From: Chlamydiales bacterium
GTDB taxonomy: Bacteria > Chlamydiota > Chlamydiia > Chlamydiales > JACKPQ01
Direction of reading: 5' to 3'
Assembly (NCBI GenBank): GCA_024233435.1
Contig: JACKPQ010000002.1
Span: 320,286 to 384,285, forward strand
Length of the DNA: 64,000 bases
Shown here: positions 13,574 through 41,227 of the stretch, in pieces
How the letters are laid out: the number at the start of each line of letters is the position of its first letter
Numbering within the stretch: the stretch's first letter is position 1
Made by a program: the position numbers and the translations under genes
The notes under the pieces: model-generated
What the model saw: the letters and a program-made list of their open reading frames with translations, nothing else
Database searches by the model: none
Told to the model about the DNA's origin: nothing

Positions 13574-16500
13574 ATGATAGAAAGAGCAATATTATTCATC
13601 GTCGTCGTTGCCAGCCTTTCCAACAAGGTTTGGGCTCAGACTTGGAATGCCGGAAGCGGCGCATGGAATGTTCCTGCAAATTGGACTCCTGCCGTTATCC
13701 CTAATGGAGCAATAGATGTCACGTTCCCTGAGAATAGCCCTGGGGCCACTTCAACTGTTACAATTCCAGGGGCATATTCTATTCGCAATATGACTTTTAC
13801 TTCAACAACACAAGCCTACATTCTATCTGGAGGAACCCTGTCTGCTACTCCATTAGCTCTGGGTGGAATTAGTGTATCCGTTGGTTCTCCTGCTCATGTT
13901 TTAGATACAAATTTTTCTTTTATCACGACTAATCCTTTTACGATTGACCAGGACTCGACAAATGATTTAACTATTTCTGGGTCAATCGCTGGATCGGTTG
14001 GTATATCGAAGACTGGGACTGGAACTCTTGTATTCTCTGGTGCGACCCCAAGTGTGAATAGTGGTCTTTTTACGATTAATGCAGGACAGGTCACGTTGGA
14101 TAAAACGGCGGGTGTTCAAGCTGTTGGAGGTAATATAACGGTCAATGCGGGGATTTTATTTTGGAACCAATCAGAGCAAATGGCCGACACATCAACTCTG
14201 AGCATAAGTAACGCGTCAACAGTTATTGATCTCAACGGTAATACGGAAACAGTTGGAGCGTTAACAGTTGCAGCAACAGGTGCATATGCTCTTAATGGGA
14301 CTTTGAACTTAGCTGGCGCAGGGACTGTCCTAAGTGTTGCTACATTTAGCCCGACTCTAACTGGTCAGATTAATTTGATTTCTGGAGCTGGGGGTAATGT
14401 TTCAAAAACTGGAGCGGGAACGCTTGGTCTACAGAATGTCGCAGTTCAAAATGGAGCGCACGGCTTTGCTGTTACGACCGGAACTATTGATATCTCTGGT
14501 AAAATCAGCGGTAATGGGGGGATTGTTAAGTCGGGGACTGGCACACTGACTTTTACAGGAACGGAAGTCAATGATTATGATGGTGATACAGTAGTTACTG
14601 CAGGGACTTTGAATCTCAATCATACAGCAGGAGTAGCAATTACAAATGATTGTTTTATTAGCGGAGGTGTTCTGCTTCTTGGCTCAGGCAATCAAATTGC
14701 CGATACTGCGAATGTAACTGTCACATCCGGTTCGTTCAACATGAATTCGATGCCGGAAACGATTAATAGCCTGATATTAGATGGAGGTACTCTCATCAAT
14801 AATGGTGCAGGTTTGACGCTGAATTCTACAGGAACAGCCTTGTCTTTGAGAAACTCATCAATACCTGGACAGATCAATTTAACGGGTGCAACAGGTGGCA
14901 ATGTCATCTTTACTGATACGGGCGGAAACACTGGGACGTTGGCTAACGTCGATTTAGGTTCAGCCAACCGCATCTTTACTGTTGAAGATGTTCCTGCTGC
15001 AGCTGACCTCAATATTACGGGTGTGGTGAGTGGAGCTGGTGGGCTGACTAAAATGGGGTTTGGGCTTTTGCAGTATAGCTCAAATAACTCGAATAGTTAC
15101 ACGGGATTGACGACGGTTTCTGAAGGTACACTTTTATTGATCAAAACAGCGCCTTTTGTTGCTGTCCAAGGCGATATGCTTATCAACGGAGGTACCCTGC
15201 GATTAGGTAGGACAAATCAAATAGCCGATACTTCAAATGTGAAAATCGAGAGCGGAACGTTCGATTTAAATAACTTTAATGAAACTGTGGGTAGTTTGAA
15301 TTATTTGGGGGGATCTTTAATTCAGGGCAGTGCCGTCTTATCCTTGAGTGGAACAGGAACAGCGTTAACCATGAGGGATACTGTGGTTAACGGCACAGTG
15401 AGTTTGACAGGTGCATCAGGAGGTGGAGTTGTTTTTGATAGTAGCAATGGTGGAATGGCTTTTATCAATAATATCTTGCTTGGCAATGTTTCACGGACGT
15501 TTACGGTTGGTGGAGGAAATGACTCAAATGTCAAGATGGCGATATTAAATAGCTCTGGCACTGGAGGAGCTTTAATCAAAGATGGCCCAGGGATTCTAGA
15601 ACTTATTGGCCTTAATACATATACAATTGATAGCGCAAGAGTTGTCAATGGAACCTTAGCTGTCCAAGGGAGTCTTAACGCTCCGGCGCTAATTGTAGAA
15701 CCTGAAGGGGTAGTCAAGGGTTGCGGCACGATCATGGCGGCTGGAACTATTAATGGTACACTAAAGCCGGGTAATTCTATTGGAACGATCAATCTTGTTG
15801 GTGACCAAGTTTTCGGGTCGACCTTTGTGCTGGAAAACGAAATTAATCAAACTGAAACTGATTTAGTTAATATTACGGGAATGCTAACGATTGATCCCGG
15901 AGCGGCTGTTTCAGTTATTCCCCTTATATCAAACTTTACTGTCCCTACTACATATACGATCATACAGACAACTGCAGGTGTTTCAGGGACTTTTTCATCA
16001 GTGAATAACCCTTCTCTTTTTTACTCAAGTTCTCTGATCTACAATCCATTAACGGTTCAATTAACTCTCGACTCGATAGGGTTTTCTCAAATAGTTACAG
16101 CTGGCAATGCGGGCGTGGTAGCCAATTATTTAGACAGTCTCAATATCCAGCCTGGAAGTGATCTAGCAGCGGTTTTCAACGCCTTGCGTCAACTAACAAC
16201 TCAAGAAGCGCTTGAAAATGCCCTTTTTCAGTTACAACCAAGTCCGCTGAAGGGATTAGCGCTTTCTCAAGAAAACAATGCCTTTCAAATTGAGTCTTAT
16301 ATATTGGAGCGGACAAGGCCTAAATGCTGTGTTGATAACCAAAGAGCGAATCTTTGGGTTTTATTTGCTGGAGATCAATACAATCAAAATTCTATTCAAG
16401 AAGAAAAGCCTTTTCAAACGGCTTCTGGGCATGCCTTAATAGGTATTGATCGATATGTTAATGACAGTGCACTTATCGGTATTGCCGGGGGCTATACTTA

Positions 16501-17170
16501 CTCAGATGTGAATTGGGAAAAAATTAAGGACAAGGCGACCATTAATAATGGTACTTTAGCTTTGTATGGTCACGTGAAGACGGATTATATATTTGTCGAT
16601 GGTGCGATTCTTGGAGCATACAATAACTATTGTGAAACACGGAAAGTGCAGTTTTCATCTATTGACCGTACAGTCAAAGGGAACCCACAAGGAGGTCAAA
16701 TACTCACAAGCTTAAGCATTGGCAGCTCATTTTCACATCACAATCTAAATATCAGCCCTTTTTTATCAGGAAAATTTATGTATTTAGGGATGGGAAGCTT
16801 TAAGGAAAGTGGCGGTCAAAGTCTTGATCTAGAAGTAAGAAGCAGTGGGTACTCGCTTTTCCGTGGAGAGCTGGGCTTTAATTTTAATCATTGTTATAAT
16901 TTCCCCAATTTTATTATGGCGGCTGACTTAGATTTAGCATATATTCGAGAACAGCGATTTATAGGAACAAATTTCGACTCAAAGTTTGTTGACTATCCCT
17001 ACTTTACCGTAAAGGGAATGAATCCTTCGCGTAGTGCTTTTTCTCCCGATTTCAATCTCTCAATTTTGTCATGTGAGCGGAGAAAAAGTTTGATGGTTGG
17101 CTATCATGCTGAAATCGGTGGGCGCTACTTCGAACAAAATCTCTATCTTGAGGGAAGTTTTCAGTTCTAA
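13574..17170 (+). CDS. Classical (type Va) autotransporter outer membrane protein
   Basis: 1198 aa. A strong SD (AGGAGG, 13561-13566) precedes a signal peptide (VVVASLSNKVWAQT). The long passenger is made of G/T/N-rich repeats of the form GTGTLxxxG...N.Y.G.T.V..GTL (autotransporter-associated beta-strand repeat type). The ~280-aa C-terminal beta-barrel domain ends in ...EGSFQF, with a terminal Phe. Confidence 0.85.
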   Translation: MIERAILFIVVVASLSNKVWAQTWNAGSGAWNVPANWTPAVIPNGAIDVTFPENSPGATSTVTIPGAYSIRNMTFTSTTQAYILSGGTLSATPLALGGISVSVGSPAHVLDTNFSFITTNPFTIDQDSTNDLTISGSIAGSVGISKTGTGTLVFSGATPSVNSGLFTINAGQVTLDKTAGVQAVGGNITVNAGILFWNQSEQMADTSTLSISNASTVIDLNGNTETVGALTVAATGAYALNGTLNLAGAGTVLSVATFSPTLTGQINLISGAGGNVSKTGAGTLGLQNVAVQNGAHGFAVTTGTIDISGKISGNGGIVKSGTGTLTFTGTEVNDYDGDTVVTAGTLNLNHTAGVAITNDCFISGGVLLLGSGNQIADTANVTVTSGSFNMNSMPETINSLILDGGTLINNGAGLTLNSTGTALSLRNSSIPGQINLTGATGGNVIFTDTGGNTGTLANVDLGSANRIFTVEDVPAAADLNITGVVSGAGGLTKMGFGLLQYSSNNSNSYTGLTTVSEGTLLLIKTAPFVAVQGDMLINGGTLRLGRTNQIADTSNVKIESGTFDLNNFNETVGSLNYLGGSLIQGSAVLSLSGTGTALTMRDTVVNGTVSLTGASGGGVVFDSSNGGMAFINNILLGNVSRTFTVGGGNDSNVKMAILNSSGTGGALIKDGPGILELIGLNTYTIDSARVVNGTLAVQGSLNAPALIVEPEGVVKGCGTIMAAGTINGTLKPGNSIGTINLVGDQVFGSTFVLENEINQTETDLVNITGMLTIDPGAAVSVIPLISNFTVPTTYTIIQTTAGVSGTFSSVNNPSLFYSSSLIYNPLTVQLTLDSIGFSQIVTAGNAGVVANYLDSLNIQPGSDLAAVFNALRQLTTQEALENALFQLQPSPLKGLALSQENNAFQIESYILERTRPKCCVDNQRANLWVLFAGDQYNQNSIQEEKPFQTASGHALIGIDRYVNDSALIGIAGGYTYSDVNWEKIKDKATINNGTLALYGHVKTDYIFVDGAILGAYNNYCETRKVQFSSIDRTVKGNPQGGQILTSLSIGSSFSHHNLNISPFLSGKFMYLGMGSFKESGGQSLDLEVRSSGYSLFRGELGFNFNHCYNFPNFIMAADLDLAYIREQRFIGTNFDSKFVDYPYFTVKGMNPSRSAFSPDFNLSILSCERRKSLMVGYHAEIGGRYFEQNLYLEGSFQF

Positions 17171-23098: not shown

Positions 23099-25800
23099 TT
23101 TTTGCCAACTGATACATCAACAACGAGCGGAACCTTCAAAGGGAAAGCGGTTTCCATCTTATCGACAACTATTTTTTTCACTTTTGCTAGGTGCTCTTGG
23201 GGCACTTCAAAGAGCAATTCATCGTGAATTTGCAAAATCATTTGTCCCCATTCTGGTCTGTCTTTGAGCTCAGCATCAATTGCGATCATCGCCATTTTAA
23301 TGATATCTGATTGTGTTCCTTGAATGGGTGTATTCACGGCATAGCGCTCTGCAGCTGCGCGCAAATGAGGGTTTTTACTTTTAATTTCTGGCAAGGGTCT
23401 GATGCGCCCTGTCATCGATGTCGCAACGCCTGTTTTTCGAGCTTTAGCCTTACAATCTTCGATAAATTCTTTAACCTTGGGATGGCGCTCAAAATAGGTT
23501 GAGATAAATTTTTCTGCATCGTGAAAATCCATTCCAAGTGATTCTGAAAGACCAAATGCTTGTTGGCCATAGATGATTCCAAAGTTAACAGCTTTAGCTT
23601 TTCGGCGCATGTCAGGTGAGACATCCTTTAGTGGAACTTCAAAGATCGAGCTTGCTGTTGCAGCATGAATGTCATTGCCATTTTTAAATGCTTCGATGAG
23701 TGTTTTATCTCCTGTTAAGTGCGCTAAAATACGCAGCTCTACTTGGCTGTAGTCGGCAGATAAAAATTGCACACCTCTTTTCTCACAGGTAAAAGCTTCG
23801 CGCACTTTTTTCCCCTCTGCAGTACGTATGGGGATGTTTTGCAAATTTGGATCAGTACAAGATAAGCGTCCTGTAGCTGTGACTGACTGATGAAATGAGC
23901 AGTGAATTCTGTGCGTTTGTGGATTGATTTGCTCTGGTAGTGAATCAACGTAGGTAGATCGGAGTTTTTCAATGGTGCGGTAGTCGATGATTTCATCGAT
24001 GATGGGATGATCTCCTTGCAATTCAGCTAAGACTGCAGCGCTTGTCGAGTAACCTGTTGCTTTTTTACGACCCACTGTTTTTAATTCTAAATCAGTGAAA
24101 AGGATCTCAGACATCTGTTTGGGTGAATTGATGTTAAATTCTTTACCTGCGTGCTTGTAGATTTTCTTCTTTAGGTCTTTGAGTTTTTCTGCCAGCATCT
24201 GTGATTTTTGTTTTAGCCTTTCTTTATCGATGTAAATACCTGCGCGCTCCATGCGTAAAAGGACCCAAACAAGAGGTAGCTCTACTTCGAAAAACAGTTT
24301 TTCAAGACCGGTGCTTTTGAGTTCTTTTTCAAAAAGTGCTTTTAGCTTGCATGTATAATCAACATCCTCACAGCAATATGAGCCGACTTCACTGATATCC
24401 ACATCTGCCATTGACTTTTGCTTTTTCCCAGTCCCAATAAGTTTTGAAATAGGCGTTTTAATCACGTTGAAATGCTCGAGAATAATCTGGTCTAAACCAT
24501 GCCTGTTTTTCTGTGGAGCAAGCAGGTAAGAAGCAATCAAAGTATCAAAGCAAAGTGATTTCACTTCGATTCCCGCATTCATCAATACATGCAAATCATA
24601 CTTGATATTGTGTCCATAGAAAGAAATTTTATCATTTTCTAAAACTGGACGTAAAAATTCTAGAGCATCTTCACCGAGTTCGCCATTCAATGGAATGTAC
24701 CAAGCTTCACCGGCTTTAATGCCTAGGCCAACACCTACAAGTTGTGCTTGCATCGGCCTTAAATGTGTTGTTTCTGCGTCTAAGCAAAGTTCTTTTTCTT
24801 TTGAGAGTTTTTCTGCGAGCTTTTCTAATTCTTCTATTGTTTCAACGATGTGATATTTACCTTTGGGAGCTGCCTTAACACCTTTTTTCGATATCTTTTC
24901 TTCTGGAAGTTCTTCTTCAGCAAAAAGAGACATTTGCTTCTCTTCTTTGATGCCCATTTCTTTTAGCAGGGAGAAAAACCCTTTGTCGCGATAAAACTGA
25001 GATAGTTTTTCGTGATCGCAGTCAGCCATTTTGTAAAAATCGGAGTCAGTGGGTATTTTTAAATCAGGGTATAGATGCGCGAGTTTTTGGCTGATCAAAA
25101 GCTGCTCTTTATTCTCTATAATGCGAGCGCGTTGTTTTGCATTTTCTATTTGCTCTGGATTGTCGAGCATGTTTTGAATGCTTTTGTATTTTGTTAAAAG
25201 CGTTGCAGCTGTTTTTTTTCCAATCCCAGGTACGCCAGGAATATTGTCTGAGGCATCACCCATTAACGCGAGATAATCTGCAATTTGATTTGGGTGAACT
25301 CCATAATGCTCTTTAACGCCAGCAGGAGTGAGAATTTTATTGTCTTTGTAGGTGTTGACCATCACCACTTTATCAGTTACAAGCTGGGCCAAATCTTTAT
25401 CATTTGTGCACAAAAACACTTTGGATGCTTTTTTGGTTGCCCATTTCGCAATGGCTCCGATGGTATCGTCTGCTTCTACACCAGGGAGCTCTATTTGCGG
25501 AATGCCTGAGAGCTTGCAAAACTCTATGGCCCAATCAAGTTGTGGAAAAAGATCCTCAGGCATGCCTTCGCGGTGCGCTTTATACTTCTCGTAGATATCT
25601 GTGCGCGATTTTTTGTTGTCAGGTCCGTCGAAAACAACGACAAGGTGTTTTGGATCAAAATCTTTGATGACTTTTTGAACAGAGCGGATAAATCCATAGA
25701 GAGCATTGGTTGATTCGCCCTTGTCATTTGTCATGTGATAAATCGCATGATAGGAGCGAAAAAGATAAGCAAGTGCGTCAATGACGTATATTTTATCCAT
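23077..25800 (-). CDS. polA: DNA polymerase I
   Basis: 907 aa with a 5'-nuclease N-terminus and pol motifs A (DYSQVELRILAH), B (RRKAKAVNFGIIYG) and C (QIHDELLFE). Confidence 0.97.
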   Translation of the reverse strand: MDKIYVIDALAYLFRSYHAIYHMTNDKGESTNALYGFIRSVQKVIKDFDPKHLVVVFDGPDNKKSRTDIYEKYKAHREGMPEDLFPQLDWAIEFCKLSGIPQIELPGVEADDTIGAIAKWATKKASKVFLCTNDKDLAQLVTDKVVMVNTYKDNKILTPAGVKEHYGVHPNQIADYLALMGDASDNIPGVPGIGKKTAATLLTKYKSIQNMLDNPEQIENAKQRARIIENKEQLLISQKLAHLYPDLKIPTDSDFYKMADCDHEKLSQFYRDKGFFSLLKEMGIKEEKQMSLFAEEELPEEKISKKGVKAAPKGKYHIVETIEELEKLAEKLSKEKELCLDAETTHLRPMQAQLVGVGLGIKAGEAWYIPLNGELGEDALEFLRPVLENDKISFYGHNIKYDLHVLMNAGIEVKSLCFDTLIASYLLAPQKNRHGLDQIILEHFNVIKTPISKLIGTGKKQKSMADVDISEVGSYCCEDVDYTCKLKALFEKELKSTGLEKLFFEVELPLVWVLLRMERAGIYIDKERLKQKSQMLAEKLKDLKKKIYKHAGKEFNINSPKQMSEILFTDLELKTVGRKKATGYSTSAAVLAELQGDHPIIDEIIDYRTIEKLRSTYVDSLPEQINPQTHRIHCSFHQSVTATGRLSCTDPNLQNIPIRTAEGKKVREAFTCEKRGVQFLSADYSQVELRILAHLTGDKTLIEAFKNGNDIHAATASSIFEVPLKDVSPDMRRKAKAVNFGIIYGQQAFGLSESLGMDFHDAEKFISTYFERHPKVKEFIEDCKAKARKTGVATSMTGRIRPLPEIKSKNPHLRAAAERYAVNTPIQGTQSDIIKMAMIAIDAELKDRPEWGQMILQIHDELLFEVPQEHLAKVKKIVVDKMETAFPLKVPLVVDVSVGKNWGECYN

Positions 25801-26818
25801 TTTCGTATAAATACATAAGCTTGTTGCTTAAGTTGGGATCGAATAGATCTTTTATTTTGTCAAAACCAAATGCTTTGCCCTCGATGAGATCAGCAAGGAA
25901 AAAACGTTGAGGAATGAGCTCGATGACTTGGTAGTTTTGCTCTTTTGTGATGCCAGCTTTTTCACAAAGCGCATTGAGAGCCATGGAATAATCGCTGTTT
26001 GCCTCGTCGATGTAGCCGAGTTGCTCGGCTTTGGGCGCATCGAAAACTTGCGCTCCGTAGGTATTGATAAGCGCATTTTTATTCAACCGAGGTCTTGCGC
26101 TTGTGACAATATCGACAAAGCGATTGTACTGATACTCGATGATGTCTTGCAAAGATTTGTCTTCGCCTGGCTTCCACTCTCTGAAGGGGCTGAGCATGTC
26201 CTTGTCGATACCACGCGTTATTGTCATTGCTTTGACGCCCACTTTTTGCATTAAATCGACAACATTAAAGTTAGGGCCTAGGATAACGCCTACAGAACCA
26301 ATGACGCTTACAGGTGATGCATAGATCTTTTCAGCGCTTGAAGAAACATACATCCCTCCCGATGCGCACATCCCATCGACAAAAGCATAAACGGGCACAT
26401 TATAACGTTTGCTGTAACTGTTTAAGGAACGATACATCTGGTCAGCATCAGTTACAGTTCCGCCTGGAGTGTTGATATGAAGCAATATTCCCTTGACGCG
26501 ATCTTTTTTGATCATCACGCCTTGCGAATCCATCAGCTGCATTTCAATATTTTTTCCAAGCAGTTTATCCATGCCAATTACACCATGAATATTGATGCGC
26601 AAAATCACAGGCGCACTTGGAGGAAGCATCGTGCGGTTTCCTTCAGCATCGGCGGCAATAATCACTTCAGTTGATGGGCCAGACGTTTTGCTGCCAAAAA
26701 AAACTAAAAATAAAAAAACAATCACAAAGATGCCGATCAGCAAACCTGCTGCTCCACAAAAAGCTTTAGAAAAGCTGCGCATACCTGACTTGACGATTGA
26801 TTCGTTTGGATTATCCAT
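25793..26818 (-). CDS. sppA: Signal peptide peptidase SppA (36K type, S49; SohB-like)
   Basis: 341 aa with an N-terminal TM and an S49 core (INTPGG ... MCASGGMYVSS). Confidence 0.88.
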   Translation of the reverse strand: MDNPNESIVKSGMRSFSKAFCGAAGLLIGIFVIVFLFLVFFGSKTSGPSTEVIIAADAEGNRTMLPPSAPVILRINIHGVIGMDKLLGKNIEMQLMDSQGVMIKKDRVKGILLHINTPGGTVTDADQMYRSLNSYSKRYNVPVYAFVDGMCASGGMYVSSSAEKIYASPVSVIGSVGVILGPNFNVVDLMQKVGVKAMTITRGIDKDMLSPFREWKPGEDKSLQDIIEYQYNRFVDIVTSARPRLNKNALINTYGAQVFDAPKAEQLGYIDEANSDYSMALNALCEKAGITKEQNYQVIELIPQRFFLADLIEGKAFGFDKIKDLFDPNLSNKLMYLYENG

Positions 26819-26879
26819 GCTGTTCCTTATAGTTGCTGTAGAAACCGTATACTAGCTCATGTCTAATTGATGCACAAGC

Positions 26880-28901
26880 TTAAGGCGGTGTGCACCCTGA
26901 GGAGTAAGTGACTGTACCAGCAGTGACAACAGGCCCCGTGTTACTAGTTGTGACAGTTGCCATGGAGTCAACCATGTTGAGGTCTTCAAGGCTGAACGTT
27001 GTCGCGGTGTTGCCAAGAAGCTCAAGACAACCAAAAGGAGCACTTAAAATAGATTCGACGCGGATAGCGTTTGTCAGTGCCACGTTGTTTGTTATGCTTG
27101 CATACTTAGTATAAAAAGGCGGAACACCTATGAATTGATGGAAAATACCGTTTGCTACAAGAGAAGAGCTTACCGTATTGTTCGAGATAACAATGCTCGA
27201 CAAACCGGCCTGTTCCGTAACAGCAATTGCTTCATTTCCTGCAGTTACCATATTTCCATCAATGATAATGGTATTTAGTGAGGGGTTACTTTGAATAGCG
27301 AATATTCGAATGCCGGTGTTGATCGGGGAAGTGATGGTATTGTTTTGTATTAAAGTGGCAGAAGTGTTGACGTTGTTAACTTCGATACTAGCTCCACCAA
27401 ACCCAGTCAGATCGGTATCTACAATTGTGTTATTGCTCACGTCTATTATACCATTAACATTAACAGTTGTGATAAATGGCATGCCCGTTGTGAAAGAATT
27501 GTTTTGGATGAATGTATCTTCTAAGCCAAATAGATTGAAGTAGGAAAAGCCGGTTGATAGCCCTGTTGTGACAGACGAATTTACCAAAGTAAATGCGGTG
27601 CTTCCTATCGAAGTTTGTGCGCCAAAAAAGCCACCTACAAACTCAAAGGCGTTAACAGATACTGCCCCTCCTTGCAATTCAAAAATAGTCCCAAACATAT
27701 CCACGTGGTCGAGCGCCGGTGCAATGGCTGTTTGTGCTGGGAAAACGATCCCATCTACAGTATGGGCGATGCCTGATCCTAAGAAGAACAAGTCGTGAGG
27801 CACAGTGACAAGGGCACTTGGCCCTGGCGTTGTGTAATTAATGCCAGTTCCATAGACGTATATGCAATCGCCAGCAACTGAAGCGTCAACAGCTTCCTGA
27901 ATTGTTTGAAAGGGCATTTCAAATGTGCCATCACCGCCAGCTGGAGCAGTATTGTCAACGAAGATACAATTGATCGTTGTGGACCCTGAACCTGATCCAG
28001 TAGTAAGAGCGCTGATCCTACTTGTGTTACAAACAGGGATAATTTCTTGGCGGATGACCCCTTGCGTCATGCGGCGTTGCATTTTGGCAGACGCAATGCA
28101 CTCTTGCAGGTACCAATTCCTCCACCGTTTACCTCTAGTGCGAATAGTATTAGGTCCTAAGGGAAAGCTCAATGATGCGTAACCATTAGCTCGGGTTTTG
28201 TATTCGCGGTCATAGCTGATTTCTCCACCAATAGAGATGCCATCGAAGATCAAAACACCCAACCGTGCCATACCGCCCCAGGAAGCGCCGCAGCGCTTGC
28301 CAAGCAAGTGTTTTTCAAATAGATAGTAAGGGCCAATTGATAAATAGGGATCGACTACCAGTCCAGGAATAGGAATTCCAAATTCTGCTCCGATATTTGG
28401 AAGAGCTGTTGTTGCTTTTTGTTTAATGTAAAGGGTATTGCCTGAAGCATAGGCAAATCGACGAGGAGTTTTACCGGTATCGTTACTTATTGGGATATAG
28501 CCGTTGAGTCTGAAGTCGACGTAAGGGTTTAACACTTCAAGACCAGGGCCTATTTGGTGCGCCCTTAGATTTCTTGCATCGCGAAAGTCATAGTAGCAGT
28601 TCGCTCCAAATGCCCACTGACCGGTCGCAAATCGCGATCCAATGCCAACGTTTGATGCTGTGCGCCCATCATTAAACATATGCCCTCGCATATCGAGAAA
28701 TGGCTGGAAGTTTCTTTGCCAATTTGGCGTTAAGAATCCAGAGACGGTTCCATATCCCTGGCGATAGCCAACGCCTTCAGGCGCGCGATATCTCATTGAT
28801 GCGTGTGAGGGGGTTCCGCGAATGCATGAGGTTTGCGCAAAACCCTGCACCAGGAACATAAAAGTGATGATCCAAAATTTCTTATCCACTGCTTCATACA
28901 T
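26880..28901 (-). CDS. Surface protein, copy 1: N-terminal inverse-autotransporter-like beta-barrel plus C-terminal parallel beta-helix passenger
   Basis: The track ORF is 687 aa (to 28943). The likelier start is the Met at 28901, which gives a signal peptide MYEAVDKKFWIITFMFLVQGFAQT. The barrel pattern is FLDMRGHMFNDGRTASNVGIGSRF..WAFGANCYYDFRD...GLE...VDFRLNGYIP. The passenger has a GDGTFEMPFQTIQEAV..A..GDCIYV motif and repeated NNTI/NNS beta-helix turns. Confidence 0.75.
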   Translation of the reverse strand: MYEAVDKKFWIITFMFLVQGFAQTSCIRGTPSHASMRYRAPEGVGYRQGYGTVSGFLTPNWQRNFQPFLDMRGHMFNDGRTASNVGIGSRFATGQWAFGANCYYDFRDARNLRAHQIGPGLEVLNPYVDFRLNGYIPISNDTGKTPRRFAYASGNTLYIKQKATTALPNIGAEFGIPIPGLVVDPYLSIGPYYLFEKHLLGKRCGASWGGMARLGVLIFDGISIGGEISYDREYKTRANGYASLSFPLGPNTIRTRGKRWRNWYLQECIASAKMQRRMTQGVIRQEIIPVCNTSRISALTTGSGSGSTTINCIFVDNTAPAGGDGTFEMPFQTIQEAVDASVAGDCIYVYGTGINYTTPGPSALVTVPHDLFFLGSGIAHTVDGIVFPAQTAIAPALDHVDMFGTIFELQGGAVSVNAFEFVGGFFGAQTSIGSTAFTLVNSSVTTGLSTGFSYFNLFGLEDTFIQNNSFTTGMPFITTVNVNGIIDVSNNTIVDTDLTGFGGASIEVNNVNTSATLIQNNTITSPINTGIRIFAIQSNPSLNTIIIDGNMVTAGNEAIAVTEQAGLSSIVISNNTVSSSLVANGIFHQFIGVPPFYTKYASITNNVALTNAIRVESILSAPFGCLELLGNTATTFSLEDLNMVDSMATVTTSNTGPVVTAGTVTYSSGCTPP

Positions 28902-28959
28902 ATATATATAATTCTTTTCCGTAAAGAATAATTTTAGGGTCAATTCGGTATGGCCAGCT

Positions 28960-29298
28960 TCACAGTCGATTAAGTTCTTTTAAGAGATCGCCAGTAGACG
29001 AATACAATTTTCCGGTCCACTCAGAAATATTGCGAGATTGCGTGCTGAAGTTAATCCCAATGACAGCAAGCTGACGATTTTGATGGGAGTATTTGCGGTT
29101 AGCATCAGCTGTTTTGGTGCAGCTTAAATTGTCTATAATGGGTTTATCATACTCATCGACTAGCACGACGACTTCAGCTATTTGAGAAAGCTTTTTCACC
29201 AAATTAGCAAGGCCTTCTTGTAATGTAGGTGTATCGATTGAAACTCCATAATTTAATGCAATTTCTGACAGTGATCTTTCGATGCTTTTTTCTAATTG
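28960..29298 (-). pseudogene. 3' fragment (last 112 codons) of the AAA-ATPase-like gene, duplicated with unit 1
   Basis: Identical to the C-terminal 112 aa of ORF 33830-34462 (QLEKSIERSL...KELNRL). The track ORF 28960-29472 is a chimera that reads 58 alt-frame codons out of the preceding surface-protein gene. Confidence 0.8.
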
Positions 29299-29308
29299 AT
29301 GCACAAGC

Positions 29309-31336
29309 TTAAGGCGGTGTGCACCCTGAGGAGTAAGTGACTGTACCAGCAGTGACAACAGGCCCCGTGTTACTAGTTGTGACAGTTGCCATGGAGTCAA
29401 CCATGTTGAGGTCTTCAAGGCTGAACGTTGTCGCGGTGTTGCCAAGAAGCTCAAGACAACCAAAAGGAGCACTTACAATAGATTCGACGCGGATAGCGTT
29501 TGTCAGTGCCACGTTGTTTGTTATGCTTGCATACTTATTATAAAAAGGCGGAACAAATGGATTGGTGAATTGATGGAAAATACCGTTTGCTACAAGAGAA
29601 GAGCTTACCGTATTGTTCGAGATAACAATGCTCGACAAACCGGACTGTTCCGTAACAGCAATTGCTTCATTTCCTGCAGTTACCATATTTCCATCAATGA
29701 TAATGGTATTTAGTGAGGGGTTACTTTGAATAGCGAATATTCGAATGCCGGTGTTGATCGGGGAAGTGATGGTATTGTTTTGTATTAAAGTGGCAGAAGT
29801 GTTGACGTTGTTAACTTCGATACTAGCTCCACCAAACCCAGTCAGATCGGTATCTACAATTGTGTTATTGCTCACGTCTATTATACCATTAACATTAACA
29901 GTTGTGATAAATGGCATGCCCGTTGTGAAAGAATTGTTTTGGATGAATGTATCTTCTAAGCCAAATAGATTGAAGTAGGAAAAGCCGGTTGATAGCCCTG
30001 TTGTGACAGACGAATTTACCAAAGTAAATGCGGTGCTTCCTATCGAAGTTTGTGCGCCAAAAAAGCCACCTACAAACTCAAAGGCGTTAACAGATACTGC
30101 CCCTCCTTGCAATTCAAAAATAGTCCCAAACATATCCACGTGGTCGAGCGCCGGTGCAATGGCTGTTTGTGCTGGGAAAACGATCCCATCTACAGTATGG
30201 GCGATGCCTGATCCTAAGAAGAACAAGTCGTGAGGCACAGTGACAAGGGCACTTGGCCCTGGCGTTGTGTAATTAATGCCAGTTCCATAGACGTATATGC
30301 AATCGCCAGCAACTGAAGCGTCAACAGCTTCCTGAATTGTTTGAAAGGGCATTTCAAATGTGCCATCACCGCCAGCTGGAGCAGTATTGTCAACGAAGAT
30401 ACAATTGATCGTTGTGGACCCTGAACCTGATCCAGTAGTAAGAGCGCTGATCCTACTTGTGTTACAAACAGGGATAATTTCTTGGCGGATGACCCCTTGC
30501 GTCATGCGGCGTTGCATTTTGGCAGACGCAATGCACTCTTGCAGGTACCAATTCCTCCACCGTTTACCTCTAGTGCGAATAGTATTAGGTCCTAAGGGAA
30601 AGCTCAATGATGCGTAACCATTAGCTCGGGTTTTGTATTCGCGGTCATAGCTGATTTCTCCACCAATAGAGATGCCATCGAAGATCAAAACACCCAACCG
30701 TGCCATACCGCCCCAGGAAGCGCCGCAGCGCTTGCCAAGCAAGTGTTTTTCAAATAGATAGTAAGGGCCAATTGATAAATAGGGATCGACTACCAGTCCA
30801 GGAATAGGAATTCCAAATTCTGCTCCGATATTTGGAAGAGCTGTTGTTGCTTTTTGTTTAATGTAAAGGGTATTGCCTGAAGCATAGGCAAATCGACGAG
30901 GAGTTTTACCGGTATCGTTACTTATTGGGATATAGCCGTTGAGTCTGAAGTCGACGTAAGGGTTTAACACTTCAAGACCAGGGCCTATTTGGTGCGCCCT
31001 TAGATTTCTTGCATCGCGAAAGTCATAGTAGCAGTTCGCTCCAAATGCCCACTGACCGGTCGCAAATCGCGATCCAATGCCAACGTTTGATGCTGTGCGC
31101 CCATCATTAAACATATGCCCTCGCATATCGAGAAATGGCTGGAAGTTTCTTTGCCAATTTGGCGTTAAGAATCCAGAGACGGTTCCATATCCCTGGCGAT
31201 AGCCAACGCCTTCAGGCGCGCGATATCTCATTGATGCGTGTGAGGGGGTTCCGCGAATGCATGAGGTTTGCGCAAAACCCTGCACCAGGAACATAAAAGT
31301 GATGATCCAAAATTTCTTATCCACTGCTTCATACAT
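29309..31336 (-). CDS. Surface protein, copy 2 (inverse-autotransporter-like barrel plus beta-helix passenger)
   Basis: The 689-aa track ORF runs to 31378, with a probable start at 31336. It is identical to copy 3 and differs from copy 1 only near the C-terminus. Confidence 0.75.
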   Translation of the reverse strand: MYEAVDKKFWIITFMFLVQGFAQTSCIRGTPSHASMRYRAPEGVGYRQGYGTVSGFLTPNWQRNFQPFLDMRGHMFNDGRTASNVGIGSRFATGQWAFGANCYYDFRDARNLRAHQIGPGLEVLNPYVDFRLNGYIPISNDTGKTPRRFAYASGNTLYIKQKATTALPNIGAEFGIPIPGLVVDPYLSIGPYYLFEKHLLGKRCGASWGGMARLGVLIFDGISIGGEISYDREYKTRANGYASLSFPLGPNTIRTRGKRWRNWYLQECIASAKMQRRMTQGVIRQEIIPVCNTSRISALTTGSGSGSTTINCIFVDNTAPAGGDGTFEMPFQTIQEAVDASVAGDCIYVYGTGINYTTPGPSALVTVPHDLFFLGSGIAHTVDGIVFPAQTAIAPALDHVDMFGTIFELQGGAVSVNAFEFVGGFFGAQTSIGSTAFTLVNSSVTTGLSTGFSYFNLFGLEDTFIQNNSFTTGMPFITTVNVNGIIDVSNNTIVDTDLTGFGGASIEVNNVNTSATLIQNNTITSPINTGIRIFAIQSNPSLNTIIIDGNMVTAGNEAIAVTEQSGLSSIVISNNTVSSSLVANGIFHQFTNPFVPPFYNKYASITNNVALTNAIRVESIVSAPFGCLELLGNTATTFSLEDLNMVDSMATVTTSNTGPVVTAGTVTYSSGCTPP

Positions 31337-31394
31337 ATATATATAATTCTTTTCCGTAAAGAATAATTTTAGGGTCAATTCGGTATGGCCAGCT

Positions 31395-31733
31395 TCACAG
31401 TCGATTAAGTTCTTTTAAGAGATCGCCAGTAGACGAATACAATTTTCCGGTCCACTCAGAAATATTGCGAGATTGCGTGCTGAAGTTAATCCCAATGACA
31501 GCAAGCTGACGATTTTGATGGGAGTATTTGCGGTTAGCATCAGCTGTTTTGGTGCAGCTTAAATTGTCTATAATGGGTTTATCATACTCATCGACTAGCA
31601 CGACGACTTCAGCTATTTGAGAAAGCTTTTTCACCAAATTAGCAAGGCCTTCTTGTAATGTAGGTGTATCGATTGAAACTCCATAATTTAATGCAATTTC
31701 TGACAGTGATCTTTCGATGCTTTTTTCTAATTG
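31395..31733 (-). pseudogene. 3' fragment of the AAA-ATPase-like gene, duplicated with unit 2
   Basis: Same 112 codons as 28960-29298 and the same chimeric 170-aa track ORF (31395-31907). Confidence 0.8.
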
Positions 31734-31743
31734 ATGCACAAGC

Positions 31744-33771
31744 TTAAGGCGGTGTGCACCCTGAGGAGTAAGTGACTGTACCAGCAGTGACAACAGGCCC
31801 CGTGTTACTAGTTGTGACAGTTGCCATGGAGTCAACCATGTTGAGGTCTTCAAGGCTGAACGTTGTCGCGGTGTTGCCAAGAAGCTCAAGACAACCAAAA
31901 GGAGCACTTACAATAGATTCGACGCGGATAGCGTTTGTCAGTGCCACGTTGTTTGTTATGCTTGCATACTTATTATAAAAAGGCGGAACAAATGGATTGG
32001 TGAATTGATGGAAAATACCGTTTGCTACAAGAGAAGAGCTTACCGTATTGTTCGAGATAACAATGCTCGACAAACCGGACTGTTCCGTAACAGCAATTGC
32101 TTCATTTCCTGCAGTTACCATATTTCCATCAATGATAATGGTATTTAGTGAGGGGTTACTTTGAATAGCGAATATTCGAATGCCGGTGTTGATCGGGGAA
32201 GTGATGGTATTGTTTTGTATTAAAGTGGCAGAAGTGTTGACGTTGTTAACTTCGATACTAGCTCCACCAAACCCAGTCAGATCGGTATCTACAATTGTGT
32301 TATTGCTCACGTCTATTATACCATTAACATTAACAGTTGTGATAAATGGCATGCCCGTTGTGAAAGAATTGTTTTGGATGAATGTATCTTCTAAGCCAAA
32401 TAGATTGAAGTAGGAAAAGCCGGTTGATAGCCCTGTTGTGACAGACGAATTTACCAAAGTAAATGCGGTGCTTCCTATCGAAGTTTGTGCGCCAAAAAAG
32501 CCACCTACAAACTCAAAGGCGTTAACAGATACTGCCCCTCCTTGCAATTCAAAAATAGTCCCAAACATATCCACGTGGTCGAGCGCCGGTGCAATGGCTG
32601 TTTGTGCTGGGAAAACGATCCCATCTACAGTATGGGCGATGCCTGATCCTAAGAAGAACAAGTCGTGAGGCACAGTGACAAGGGCACTTGGCCCTGGCGT
32701 TGTGTAATTAATGCCAGTTCCATAGACGTATATGCAATCGCCAGCAACTGAAGCGTCAACAGCTTCCTGAATTGTTTGAAAGGGCATTTCAAATGTGCCA
32801 TCACCGCCAGCTGGAGCAGTATTGTCAACGAAGATACAATTGATCGTTGTGGACCCTGAACCTGATCCAGTAGTAAGAGCGCTGATCCTACTTGTGTTAC
32901 AAACAGGGATAATTTCTTGGCGGATGACCCCTTGCGTCATGCGGCGTTGCATTTTGGCAGACGCAATGCACTCTTGCAGGTACCAATTCCTCCACCGTTT
33001 ACCTCTAGTGCGAATAGTATTAGGTCCTAAGGGAAAGCTCAATGATGCGTAACCATTAGCTCGGGTTTTGTATTCGCGGTCATAGCTGATTTCTCCACCA
33101 ATAGAGATGCCATCGAAGATCAAAACACCCAACCGTGCCATACCGCCCCAGGAAGCGCCGCAGCGCTTGCCAAGCAAGTGTTTTTCAAATAGATAGTAAG
33201 GGCCAATTGATAAATAGGGATCGACTACCAGTCCAGGAATAGGAATTCCAAATTCTGCTCCGATATTTGGAAGAGCTGTTGTTGCTTTTTGTTTAATGTA
33301 AAGGGTATTGCCTGAAGCATAGGCAAATCGACGAGGAGTTTTACCGGTATCGTTACTTATTGGGATATAGCCGTTGAGTCTGAAGTCGACGTAAGGGTTT
33401 AACACTTCAAGACCAGGGCCTATTTGGTGCGCCCTTAGATTTCTTGCATCGCGAAAGTCATAGTAGCAGTTCGCTCCAAATGCCCACTGACCGGTCGCAA
33501 ATCGCGATCCAATGCCAACGTTTGATGCTGTGCGCCCATCATTAAACATATGCCCTCGCATATCGAGAAATGGCTGGAAGTTTCTTTGCCAATTTGGCGT
33601 TAAGAATCCAGAGACGGTTCCATATCCCTGGCGATAGCCAACGCCTTCAGGCGCGCGATATCTCATTGATGCGTGTGAGGGGGTTCCGCGAATGCATGAG
33701 GTTTGCGCAAAACCCTGCACCAGGAACATAAAAGTGATGATCCAAAATTTCTTATCCACTGCTTCATACAT
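31744..33771 (-). CDS. Surface protein, copy 3 (inverse-autotransporter-like barrel plus beta-helix passenger)
   Basis: The 689-aa track ORF runs to 33813, with a probable start at 33771. Its translation is identical to copy 2. Confidence 0.75.
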   Translation of the reverse strand: MYEAVDKKFWIITFMFLVQGFAQTSCIRGTPSHASMRYRAPEGVGYRQGYGTVSGFLTPNWQRNFQPFLDMRGHMFNDGRTASNVGIGSRFATGQWAFGANCYYDFRDARNLRAHQIGPGLEVLNPYVDFRLNGYIPISNDTGKTPRRFAYASGNTLYIKQKATTALPNIGAEFGIPIPGLVVDPYLSIGPYYLFEKHLLGKRCGASWGGMARLGVLIFDGISIGGEISYDREYKTRANGYASLSFPLGPNTIRTRGKRWRNWYLQECIASAKMQRRMTQGVIRQEIIPVCNTSRISALTTGSGSGSTTINCIFVDNTAPAGGDGTFEMPFQTIQEAVDASVAGDCIYVYGTGINYTTPGPSALVTVPHDLFFLGSGIAHTVDGIVFPAQTAIAPALDHVDMFGTIFELQGGAVSVNAFEFVGGFFGAQTSIGSTAFTLVNSSVTTGLSTGFSYFNLFGLEDTFIQNNSFTTGMPFITTVNVNGIIDVSNNTIVDTDLTGFGGASIEVNNVNTSATLIQNNTITSPINTGIRIFAIQSNPSLNTIIIDGNMVTAGNEAIAVTEQSGLSSIVISNNTVSSSLVANGIFHQFTNPFVPPFYNKYASITNNVALTNAIRVESIVSAPFGCLELLGNTATTFSLEDLNMVDSMATVTTSNTGPVVTAGTVTYSSGCTPP

Positions 33772-33829
33772 ATATATATAATTCTTTTCCGTAAAGAATA
33801 ATTTTAGGGTCAATTCGGTATGGCCAGCT

Positions 33830-34462
33830 TCACAGTCGATTAAGTTCTTTTAAGAGATCGCCAGTAGACGAATACAATTTTCCGGTCCACTCAGAAATAT
33901 TGCGAGATTGCGTGCTGAAGTTAATCCCAATGACAGCAAGCTGACGATTTTGATGGGAGTATTTGCGGTTAGCATCAGCTGTTTTGGTGCAGCTTAAATT
34001 GTCTATAATGGGTTTATCATACTCATCGACTAGCACGACGACTTCAGCTATTTGAGAAAGCTTTTTCACCAAATTAGCAAGGCCTTCTTGTAATGTAGGT
34101 GTATCGATTGAAACTCCATAATTTAATGCAATTTCTGACAGTGATCTTTCGATGCTTTTTTCTAATTGCTCGGTTGTCTTATTAGGAATTTGAGTGAAAT
34201 CAAAATGAATGATAGGATGCTCAGTCCACGTGTAATCACTTTTACTAATGGAGCAATCTTTGAATAAAGCTTGATTTCCCTTCAAGATCTCTTCAAGTGT
34301 GCTAATAAAAAGGGACTTCCCAAACCGCCTTGGTCTTGACATGAAGTAATACTTTCCATTATCGATAAGCCGCTTTGCATCTGCGGTTTTATCGACGTAG
34401 GCATAGCCCCCTTCCAGGATCACACGGATAGACTGGATGCCGATGGGTAACTTTTTTATCAT
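33830..34462 (-). CDS. AAA-ATPase-like / PD-(D/E)XK family protein, internally shortened (possible pseudogene)
   Basis: 210 aa. The N-terminus KLPIGIQSIRVILEGGYAYVDKTADAKRLI..GKYYFMSRPRRFGKSLFISTLE is the hallmark of the 'predicted AAA-ATPase' family. A Walker-B-like VLVDEYD is followed almost immediately by the family's extreme C-terminal motif (LAVIGINFSTQSRNISEW). Family members are usually more than 450 aa. Confidence 0.65.
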   Translation of the reverse strand: MIKKLPIGIQSIRVILEGGYAYVDKTADAKRLIDNGKYYFMSRPRRFGKSLFISTLEEILKGNQALFKDCSISKSDYTWTEHPIIHFDFTQIPNKTTEQLEKSIERSLSEIALNYGVSIDTPTLQEGLANLVKKLSQIAEVVVLVDEYDKPIIDNLSCTKTADANRKYSHQNRQLAVIGINFSTQSRNISEWTGKLYSSTGDLLKELNRL

Positions 34463-34508: not shown

Positions 34509-35714
34509 TCAACAAGCGCTTTCAAGCGGTTCTTGAGTGCGAAGCTCTTTGTCGGTGATGGCAGTCACGCAGCTATCAGACCAGACGTTGAGGGCAGTCT
34601 CGACCATATCAAAGATGGAATAAAGGGGAAGGATGAGCCCCATGAGCTCAAGGCGCACATTGAAGCCGATGAGGAAGGCGCTGGTAAGGAAATAGCACCC
34701 CATGGGCACACCTGCGTTGCCAATGGCGGCAATTGATGCGATGGCAATCCATGGAAGCATTTGGGGTAGGGTGAGCGCATATCCAGAACTTGAAAGTACG
34801 AACAGCACAGTGATGAGAATGAAAGCTGCGCAACCGTTCATGTTAATGACTGAGCAAAGGGGAAAGCTAAATGAGCTCACTCTTGGACTGAGGTTGGCAT
34901 TCTTTTGAGCGCTGGAAAGGGCAAGCGGCAGAGCTGCATTCGAGGATTTAGAAAAGAAAGCTGTGGCAAGAGCAGGGAACATAGCGCGCGCAAGCTTAAG
35001 AGGGGCGATTCCTTTACTTTTGAGAAGAAGCGGAAGGGCGATTAGACCTTGGATAAGATTGGCGCCAATCACTGTGCAGGCGTATAAGAGGAGGGGTTTT
35101 ATAGGCGCATCGCCACTGATAAGCTGATTTGTGAGCATAACGGTGAAGCAGAAAACGCCAATGGGTAAAATGCGCACGATGCCACTGGATACTTTTAAAA
35201 GTGCTTGAAAAAGAGCTTGGAAAAAGGTTTGCAAGGGGGCTTTATGTTCTTTTGGCAAGCGGAGAATGGCAAAGCTTAAAATGGTCGCGATAAAAGCAAC
35301 GCTGATAACATTATTTTCTGCAAAGGGTTGAATGATATTGGAGGGGATGAGTGATTTTATAAAGGATAAGTAGCTGGGCAGATGAATGTCTGGTGCTGCG
35401 GTGGCTGGCAAATAGCCAGTTGCCTGGGGTTTGATTTGTAAGAAAAGAATTAAAGCAATTGTAGCAGATAGAAGTGTTGTTAGAACTGTGTAAGTAACAA
35501 TTTTGCGCAATAGATGTTTGGCTTCGCGCAGGCTAGTCATGTTTGTAATTGTTGCAACAATCGACAGAAAAATGACAGGCAAGCTAATCATTTTCAAAAA
35601 ATTAATGAATAAACCTGAGAGTACTTTTGCAGAAACAAATACAATGGGCTGATTCAACAATCCAGCGCAAGCGCCCAATACAAATGCTAATAAAATAAAA
35701 ATATTTGATTTCAT
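34509..35714 (-). CDS. Dicarboxylate/amino acid:cation symporter (DAACS family)
   Basis: 401 aa and polytopic, with an N-terminal pattern ...FINFLKMISLPVIFLSIV and a C-terminal ...AGVPMG...LPLYSIFDM..TALNVWSD typical of GltP/SstT-type carriers. Confidence 0.82.
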   Translation of the reverse strand: MKSNIFILLAFVLGACAGLLNQPIVFVSAKVLSGLFINFLKMISLPVIFLSIVATITNMTSLREAKHLLRKIVTYTVLTTLLSATIALILFLQIKPQATGYLPATAAPDIHLPSYLSFIKSLIPSNIIQPFAENNVISVAFIATILSFAILRLPKEHKAPLQTFFQALFQALLKVSSGIVRILPIGVFCFTVMLTNQLISGDAPIKPLLLYACTVIGANLIQGLIALPLLLKSKGIAPLKLARAMFPALATAFFSKSSNAALPLALSSAQKNANLSPRVSSFSFPLCSVINMNGCAAFILITVLFVLSSSGYALTLPQMLPWIAIASIAAIGNAGVPMGCYFLTSAFLIGFNVRLELMGLILPLYSIFDMVETALNVWSDSCVTAITDKELRTQEPLESAC

Positions 35715-40177: not shown

Positions 40178-41227
40178 TTATTTTTTGGGAGCAAGCATAT
40201 CGTGGGAGTTGATCTTTAATATGAGTAACGCGTTACCAACAGGGCTTGGTCGATTTTTATGCGTGCTGGGAATGTTTTGGACTTGGTTGTCATAGAAGAT
40301 CGTCGATGAGCCTCCACCATCTAGATTGAGGGCATCTATACATCCTAAATCATTCATAAAAGAAGAGAGCTCTTTTAGTGTCATTCCAATGCTTTTTTCA
40401 CTATGGCCGTCAACAACAACAAACACAAGCTCGCCATTTGAGCGAATTCCAACAGCGCTTCTCGAGAAGCGGTGAGTGGAGAAGTTGTCTAGGATTTGCT
40501 CAGGGCCATAGTCATCAATGACTTTGCCTTGATGAATAAGAACTGGTGTTCCGCCTAAAATATTTTCATAGTCCAGCCACGTTTTGCCTAGCAGGGGCTG
40601 AATATCAATCCGAATATCAACGTGATCCCCTATATTTAATGATAGGGTTTGTGCATCGGGTCCTACAGAAAGAATGTACCCATTTTCAGGGATGGTGGCA
40701 TTGCCTGTTCGCATGATTGCAGTCACGTTGTGATCAGTATTCAATGTGTACTCCCACCCCCCAGCATCTGTTAAAGTATGTTGGTGAAAAGGTCTGCTGT
40801 ATAACACGATATCTTTTTGCTTTCTTGGGCAGTTTAACCCAGTAATTTGCACATTGTTAATGGTTACTGTTGACTTGACGCGCTCAATAACGGGAGAGCT
40901 GTTAGCATTCCAAGCAATGACGCCTCTATTTTTTACTGACGTTGCAAATAAAATATTTTGAATTTTCAACAGGCCAGCGGCTCCACCAAGGTAGGGATCT
41001 CCTAGAAAGAATCCTCCATTGATGGCTGCAAATCCACTATATCGATGCGCAATTGAAGGGACCGACTCCAATCCTAGGCCACTATCTTGAGCTAATCCAA
41101 TTTTCATCTTGTAGAGGTTTGGATCAATTGTCAAAATATAGGCGATATTCGGCCCTTCAAGTTCCCGTATTTCAAAATTGCCAAAGAGAAAGCAGGGGAG
41201 GAAAATCCAATGTATTAAGTGCTTCAT
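40178..41227 (-). CDS. Phosphodiester glycosidase family protein (NAGPA/DUF2233-like), secreted
   Basis: 349 aa with a signal peptide and the motifs INGGFF, RSAVGI and the characteristic ALNLDGGGSST. Confidence 0.75.
   Translation of the reverse strand: MKHLIHWIFLPCFLFGNFEIRELEGPNIAYILTIDPNLYKMKIGLAQDSGLGLESVPSIAHRYSGFAAINGGFFLGDPYLGGAAGLLKIQNILFATSVKNRGVIAWNANSSPVIERVKSTVTINNVQITGLNCPRKQKDIVLYSRPFHQHTLTDAGGWEYTLNTDHNVTAIMRTGNATIPENGYILSVGPDAQTLSLNIGDHVDIRIDIQPLLGKTWLDYENILGGTPVLIHQGKVIDDYGPEQILDNFSTHRFSRSAVGIRSNGELVFVVVDGHSEKSIGMTLKELSSFMNDLGCIDALNLDGGGSSTIFYDNQVQNIPSTHKNRPSPVGNALLILKINSHDMLAPKK

Follow-up and report, generated by a model that had tools for sequence, protein, structure and literature searches.

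A tandem array of a predicted inverse-autotransporter gene, probably formed by microhomology-mediated amplification, in a Chlamydiales bacterium

Genes and repeat units at the locus

The subject of this analysis is a tandem array of three near-identical copies of a gene for a predicted type Ve inverse autotransporter (IAT), found in a 64-kb stretch (hereafter the window, whose positions are used throughout) of the 641,585-bp contig JACKPQ010000002.1 from a Chlamydiales metagenome-assembled genome (MAG). Read along the minus strand, the genes are a sodium:dicarboxylate symporter (SDF) family gene (34509–35714), which forms the unique upstream flank, a 210-aa open reading frame (ORF), three ORFs of 687 or 689 aa split by 170-aa chimeric ORFs, an S49 signal-peptide-peptidase-like gene (25793–26818), which forms the unique downstream flank, and DNA polymerase I. 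A TLC ATP/ADP translocase gene lies near the array and fits a chlamydial lifestyle; together with the NCBI name of the MAG, it supports the suggestion of the first-pass annotation, made from the letters alone, that this is a chlamydia-type genome.

The array consists of contiguous, head-to-tail direct repeats of a chromosomal segment, all on the minus strand: unit 1 (26862–29290; 2429 bp), which adjoins the S49 peptidase gene, unit 2 (29291–31725; 2435 bp) and unit 3 (31726–34160; 2435 bp). Direct comparison and a repeat finder agree with these coordinates and lengths, which had been proposed at first pass, and give a spacing of 2429/2435 bp and an identity of 99.5–100%; self-alignment likewise returns contiguous near-identical repeats bounded by an octamer. 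Units 2 and 3, previously judged identical by eye, differ at 0 of 2435 positions. In a global alignment, unit 1 departs from unit 2 in 11 columns, made up of five substitutions (27047, 27109, 27127, 27128 and 27209) and one 6-nt indel (27129/27130). These fall into four clusters, as had been counted, all within 163 bp (27047–27209), and the remaining 2.27 kb are identical; unit 1 thus carries a short allele of a variable patch.

Each unit holds one complete 687/689-aa minus-strand ORF together with the last 339 nt (331 nt plus the octamer) of the upstream 210-aa ORF, in keeping with the gene content first described. IAT copy 1 (26880–28943) is an ORF of 687 aa from a TTG start, for which NCBI lists a protein of 669 aa (MCP5492373.1), implying a start 18 codons further in, at 28889. 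Copy 2 (29309–31378) has 689 aa (671 aa in MCP5492375.1, implying a start at 31324), and copy 3 (31744–33813; MCP5492377.1, 671 aa) is identical to it.

The 210-aa ORF (33830–34462, minus strand; MCP5492378.1), only the part of which from 34168 downward belongs to the repeat, is the remnant of a gene of the AAA-ATPase_like (PF09820) plus PDDEXK_9 (PF08011) type. It retains residues 1–166, followed by a 959-bp internal deletion (breakpoint 33965/33964); it matches PF09820 only as far as profile position 168 of 201, has no PF08011 match, and so does not have the full two-domain architecture. The earlier description of an AAA-ATPase-like gene whose last 339 nt lie within the unit was therefore right as to the segment, but the gene itself is a pseudogene. 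Its duplicated 3′ ends lie on the minus strand at 31395–31733 in unit 2 (breakpoint 31530/31529) and 28960–29298 in unit 1 (breakpoint 29095/29094). The missing segment is found in a contig from another assembly (L004, JGI 3300010350), where positions 2549–3507 fall between window 33965 and 33964 and continue the PF09820 match to the profile end; once one stop and one frameshift in L004 were repaired by hand, both PF09820 and PDDEXK_9 PF08011 were matched to their profile ends. The same continuation is present in L013, an 80% relative. The deletion, the same in every AAA copy of the window, is thus one of an already dead gene, and because the sequence flanking the 959-bp segment of L004 is 100% identical to the window, the deletion itself is recent. 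We considered whether an IAT cassette had been inserted into the AAA gene and rejected this, as the AAA reading frame runs contiguously to its stop, upstream of the IAT gene. At the internal junctions NCBI annotates chimeric 132-aa ORFs, MCP5492376.1 in unit 2 (derived coordinates 31395–31793), whose first codons come from the IAT 3′ end and the sequence downstream of it, and MCP5492374.1 in unit 1. MCP5492374, MCP5492376 and MCP5492378 should be annotated as pseudogene fragments.

The predicted inverse autotransporter and its variable passenger

The protein encoded by the 687/689-aa ORF matches the Pfam family IAT_beta (PF11924; E 4.5e-11, 43.3 bits against a cut-off of 22.3), although only over profile positions 88–154, and PF11924 is present in nearly all of the homologues listed. 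An AlphaFold2 model built with 27 homologues (mean pLDDT 82, pTM 0.71) places a hydrophobic signal-peptide helix at residues 3–15, a 12-strand-type beta-barrel at about 28–244, a linker helix at 262–274 and a long run of short regular strands at about 286–664. The best matches to this fold in the PDB, found with Foldseek, are the beta-domains of invasin (4e1t) and intimin (4e1s), with target-normalised TM scores of 0.72 and 0.70. In the model a barrel with the fold of intimin and invasin comes first, a linker follows and the passenger makes up the C-terminal part, and we therefore assign the protein, on its predicted features, to the type Ve inverse autotransporters of the outer membrane, which is in agreement with its first description as an outer-membrane surface protein. 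Its relatives contain beta-helix domains (PF13229, PF05048 or PF07602), and the protein of the window gave only a sub-threshold DUF1565 match in the profile search; the model suggests that its passenger, too, is probably a beta-helix. By analogy with its family, the passenger may be displayed on the surface and act as an adhesin.

The patch that separates copy 1 from copies 2 and 3 (27047–27209, minus strand) corresponds to residues 561–617 of 671, overlaps a hypervariable passenger segment (residues 406–600), and lies 185–348 nt from the edge of the array. All five codon changes in it are non-synonymous, in addition to a two-codon indel. A copy linked to the S49 gene in a 98% strain (L003) has the same 6-nt-shorter form as copy 1 and shares one substitution with it, and the outgroup L001 (a 1.59-Mb contig at ~80% nucleotide identity) has the longer form, like copies 2 and 3. 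Because the copy-1 differences are clustered and shared with L003, they represent an allele, either imported or retained, and not new mutations; point mutation after duplication was rejected as their source on the same grounds. The copy-2/3 allele is present in every contig from other assemblies that crosses the internal junction and covers the patch (L004, L005/L016, L014, L015 and L017). Edge repeats of arrays escape homogenization, and the position of the patch near the array end would fit such an escape.

The surrounding segment also varies between strains. All 41 nucleotide differences between copy 2 and the copy of L003 fall in codons 406–597, where dS is 0.10 and dN/dS is 0.66, and the other 476 aligned codons (residues 1–405 and 601–671) are identical. 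Across the whole gene, dN/dS against L001 is 0.10. This pattern points to a passenger segment (residues 406–597/600) that is mosaic, recombining and fast-evolving. One could envision the array as more than an accident of dosage: the tandem copies might keep different versions of the distal passenger in reserve, to be exchanged through gene conversion and through recombination between strains, so that an environmental chlamydia could vary a host-contact adhesin at the population level. The array would then be the earliest visible stage of a family like the chlamydial polymorphic membrane proteins (Pmps). The all-non-synonymous patch, the confinement of the L003 differences to 406–597 and the fixed position of the alleles in the array across data sets can be cited for this idea, which we nonetheless consider an unlikely one.

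The junction in other assemblies and in related strains

The octamer TCTAATTG occurs four times in the window, at 26862, 29291, 31726 and 34161, which is to say at the four unit boundaries noted at first pass and nowhere else in 64 kb. Two of the sites are ancestral: the terminal octamer (34161–34168; CAATTAGA on the gene strand) lies within the AAA-ATPase_like pseudogene, at codons E-Q-L-E, and the other (26862–26869) ends 10 nt downstream of the IAT stop codon. The remaining two (29291–29298 and 31726–31733) are at novel junctions, where the distal end of the segment is joined to its proximal end through this short homology; the internal junction reads CATCAATTAGAAAAAAGC. The bases bordering the octamer in the unique flanks do not match those at the ends of the units, which limits the microhomology to exactly 8 bp. 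Among 200,000 random breakpoint pairs placed 2–4 kb apart in the same window, the chance of sharing at least 8 bp was 2.1e-4, so an octamer at this position is far beyond chance. The octamer is indeed present at every junction, as had been claimed, but those at the internal junctions are copies of one event and do not count as independent evidence.

A mobile origin of the unit finds no support at these boundaries. Examination of the unit ends found no inverted repeats, a plasmid similarity search with the unit gave no match, and the ORFs of the unit had no family match beyond the IAT and the AAA remnant, with no replication, integrase or transposase gene among them. We therefore rejected an origin mediated by an insertion sequence (IS), a transposon or another mobile element.

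A repeat of this kind is easily collapsed or inflated by an assembler, as the first-pass annotation had warned. Five contigs from other assemblies cross the internal junction, each leaving the 3′ end of the IAT gene, passing the octamer and the 3′ fragment of the AAA gene, and entering the 5′ end of the IAT gene: L004 (100% over 2548 bp across the junction), L005, which is the same as L016 (ERZ795057, with a SPAdes-style NODE name; a 2412-bp permuted unit, 100%), L014 (ERZ795048) and L015 (ERZ27257475, with a k141 name), each with one mismatch, and L017 (ERZ27257410) with none. A further JGI contig encodes a junction-specific 114-aa ORF (P0155). Two Logan k=31 contigs, L007 (SRR12358676) and L008 (SRR12358675), match the S49 flank at 100%. 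Both start at position 26891 and thus include 30 nt (k-1) of the repeat ahead of the unique flank, so the assembly graph branches exactly at the octamer. Five crossing contigs and two graph branches together mean that the junction is not an artefact of the assembler used for the MAG, which answers the warning as far as the junction is concerned.

The number of units is another matter. The assembler could have written three where there are two, or a variable number, and in the extreme form of this explanation a single copy has been turned into an artefactual array. Sequence cannot tell two units from three or more when units 2 and 3 are identical, tandem repeats longer than the reads are commonly miscounted, and when the same organism is assembled from short reads, the locus is reduced to contigs of about one unit (2412 bp in L005 and 2190 bp in L003). 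However, the one-copy version is excluded by the five crossing contigs and by the graph topology of the two further read sets, and the consistent linkage of two gene alleles speaks against inflation. Nor would one expect short reads to be assembled into a 641-kb contig that contains a pair of identical 2.4-kb tandem copies; such copies probably imply that long reads support the count. We thus regard inflation as improbable. The coverage values in contig names (2.88 for L005 and 1.38 for L014), which come without flank contigs from the same assemblies, provide no estimate of copy number, and a literature search by sample, assembly and protein accessions found no publication. Look-ups of the exact proteins in a gene-position index (the 689-aa ORF, P0030, the 210-aa AAA remnant and the symporter) likewise gave no match.

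A 2.4-kb circle, excised as an episome or as a by-product of recombination, could also yield junction reads in the place of a chromosomal array, and a permuted contig of near-unit length such as L005 (2412 of 2435 bp) is what one would expect from it. Against such a circle stand the unit's want of any replication, integrase or transposase gene, the deposited 641-kb contig, in which the array lies in the chromosome with a distinct edge copy, and L004, which extends beyond a single unit and contains the AAA gene in two different forms. A circle is therefore very improbable.

Comparison with relatives gives the state before duplication. L001 has the same gene order and a single IAT gene; the sequence downstream of its IAT stop is CAAATGCT and not CAATTAGA, and L013 reads CAGTTAGA at the AAA site, so the octamer pair is specific to the lineage of the window. 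In the 98% strain L003, the downstream octamer is followed by the S49 flank. An empty site is seen in L011 (SRR23867504), which encodes an identical NUDIX protein and passes from symporter to S49 gene through 53 bp, in place of a 7.66-kb stretch with the AAA remnant and every IAT copy. Positions 1–4613 of L011 correspond to window 36540–34539 and 26879–24323. Since the IAT gene is present in the 80% outgroup, a loss is the simplest explanation of L011. Identity to the window is 99.55% in its left flank and only 94.9% in its right flank, a difference that suggests a recombination boundary at the site. At the same site, the sequences compared thus hold zero (L011), one (L001) or two or more IAT copies among close relatives, a comparison of copy number that had been proposed at first pass. 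The symporter–S49 site is a strain-variable hot spot, in contrast to the stability and reduction usually ascribed to the genomes of chlamydiae.

Several further observations concern the same neighborhood. The 3′ end of the symporter gene diverges in L011, which also has a perfect palindrome, GCATCAATTGATGC, in place of the GCATCAATTAGAC of the window. L009, L010 and L012, contigs assembled from short reads of the same species, end at window 34864, 35677 and 35587, respectively, inside the symporter gene and not at a repeat boundary, a hint that strains with different symporter 3′ regions occur together. In L001 (9015–10057), the AAA gene is cut after 46 codons. The unrelated sequence that follows is about 1 kb long and contains, on the minus strand, an ORF of 119 aa without a Pfam match. 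Decay of the AAA gene was therefore independent in the two lineages. An IS982-like remnant in L001 was a guess that found no Pfam support, and we dropped it.

Elsewhere in the window, a gene at 13574–17170 (plus strand), between those for a SpoIIE-type phosphatase and a poly(A) polymerase/CCA-adding enzyme, encodes a 1198-aa classical type Va autotransporter (PF03797 beta-domain and PATR repeat); L001 passes directly from window 17199 to 13329, and the gene is therefore absent there. Also absent from L001, where the alignment jumps from 41228 to 40174, is a 349-aa gene at 40178–41227 (minus strand), which matches PF09992 (NAGPA) in the near-identical loci of L009 and L010. A 325-aa TPR-repeat protein (ORF 8380–9357) contains, at 8429–9153 on the minus strand, 4.3 copies of an in-frame 99-bp (33-aa) tandem repeat at 88% identity with a superimposed 219-bp period.

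Origin of the array and comparison with known systems

We consider it likely, with a probability of roughly 0.8, that the array is a genuine chromosomal gene duplication-amplification in which a duplication mediated by the 8-bp microhomology was later expanded by unequal homologous recombination. The comparison with relatives shows that the ancestral locus comprised the SDF symporter, a decaying AAA-ATPase_like/PDDEXK_9 gene, one IAT gene and the S49 peptidase. The junction suggests that two direct copies of CAATTAGA, one inside the AAA pseudogene and one ending 10 nt past the IAT stop, were then joined by a RecA-independent, illegitimate event (replication slippage, template switching or sister-strand mis-joining), which would leave a tandem duplication with a single octamer at its novel junction. 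In a second step, unequal crossing-over between the homologous 2.4-kb (or 3.4-kb) repeats could have produced three units. The same crossing-over would keep the units nearly identical, with the S49-proximal edge of the last unit escaping and thus carrying the other allele of the hypervariable segment. The consequences might be a higher dose of a surface-exposed, adhesin-like type Ve protein in two isoforms, and a copy number free to rise and fall, which could account for the differences among strains (0, 1, 2 or more). A scar of this kind, without an IS, inverted repeat or mobile gene and with a single-copy ancestor, fits the standard two-step model of amplification, in which an illegitimate join at a microhomology is followed by homologous unequal exchange that changes copy number (PMC11721125; PMC1428787). 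The first-pass proposal of illegitimate recombination between 8-bp repeats and a second amplification step is supported by a microhomology far beyond chance and by the fit to a homology-driven second step.

Several points weigh against this interpretation. The mechanism of the first step is inferred from its scar only. The count of exactly three units, of which units 2 and 3 are indistinguishable, is provisional. The other assemblies may be re-assemblies of the same or sister samples, in which case they would be independent in software but not necessarily in biology. Promoter-like sites inside the unit did not exceed the shuffled background, with none in the region upstream of the IAT gene; between the copies, no terminator-like site was stronger than shuffled background, so read-through is possible. 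Finally, L004 has the deleted AAA form upstream of the IAT gene and the undeleted form downstream of the junction. This would need either a duplication older than the deletion, with later homogenization, or a chimeric assembly path through a 204-bp shared segment.

The last point bears on the age of the array, which the first-pass annotation had called recent. The word holds only for the last step, from which units 2 and 3 emerged without a difference, because several metagenome assemblies, one-SNP variant included, have the first duplication in common. The duplication might thus be old, predating the divergence of the metagenome strains, with gene conversion and unequal crossing-over continuing to keep its copies similar. 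In favor of this are the presence of the junction in several assemblies, with the one-SNP variant (L014 and L015) among them, its link in L004 to an undeleted 959-bp form when all copies in the window are deleted, and the position of the differences between units at the edge of the array, where homogenization is least efficient; copy 1 and L003 also share a derived 6-nt deletion, and copies 2 and 3 keep the outgroup length. However, the 204-bp segment probably exceeds the assembler's k, so the L004 path is perhaps chimeric, and copy 1 could have acquired its short allele through recombination with a different strain. In addition, the 80% relatives are single-copy and lack the octamer pair, and the duplication is therefore younger than that split. 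We rate an old duplication under concerted evolution as a serious possibility, at somewhat below even odds.

Whatever its age, the array resembles documented cases. There is ample documentation of amplifications whose junctions show microhomology and whose copy number is unstable (PMC11721125; PMC1428787). The likeness to bacterial gene amplification, as studied for lac in Salmonella/E. coli and for antibiotic heteroresistance (PMC11721125; PMC1428787), extends to head-to-tail units, one novel junction at short homology (here 8 bp), expansion of identical units and a copy number that differs between related populations. In contrast to amplifications selected in the laboratory or by antibiotics, the array of the window is found in a natural, uncultured lineage of obligate-intracellular type, its unit carries the gene of a surface adhesin-like protein, and it has persisted for a time sufficient for it to turn up in several metagenomes and to contain two alleles.

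As to the protein, the predicted IAT shares with intimin and invasin an N-terminal signal peptide, a barrel of their fold, a linker helix and a C-terminal passenger, and with intimin a concentration of variability in the passenger. Unlike them, it probably has a right-handed beta-helix passenger in place of Big/lectin domains, a subgroup already noted by Heinz et al. (PMC4943183), who described both IATs in Chlamydiae and IATs with pectin-lyase-type passengers. It also lacks a LysM domain and is only 15% identical in sequence to the solved barrels.

The array is thus an ordinary event, in which a gene from a known protein family was amplified. It is well documented here for chlamydiae in nature, and mechanistically it offers nothing new. 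Its copy number is to be treated as provisional; the locus itself is real. It does show cleanly, in a natural setting, how a family of surface proteins begins to expand in a chlamydia. The 8-bp junction is a datable scar, the single-copy ancestor is known, strains have zero, one or several copies, and the hypervariable segment that faces the host exists as two alleles. The established counterpart is the Pmp families of chlamydiae, surface proteins of beta-helix type that are expanded in tandem clusters and variable among strains. Pmps are classical (type Va) autotransporters with diverged paralogues, whereas the copies in the window are 99.5–100% identical and of the predicted inverse (type Ve) kind, and they are best regarded as a nascent array and not as an established family.

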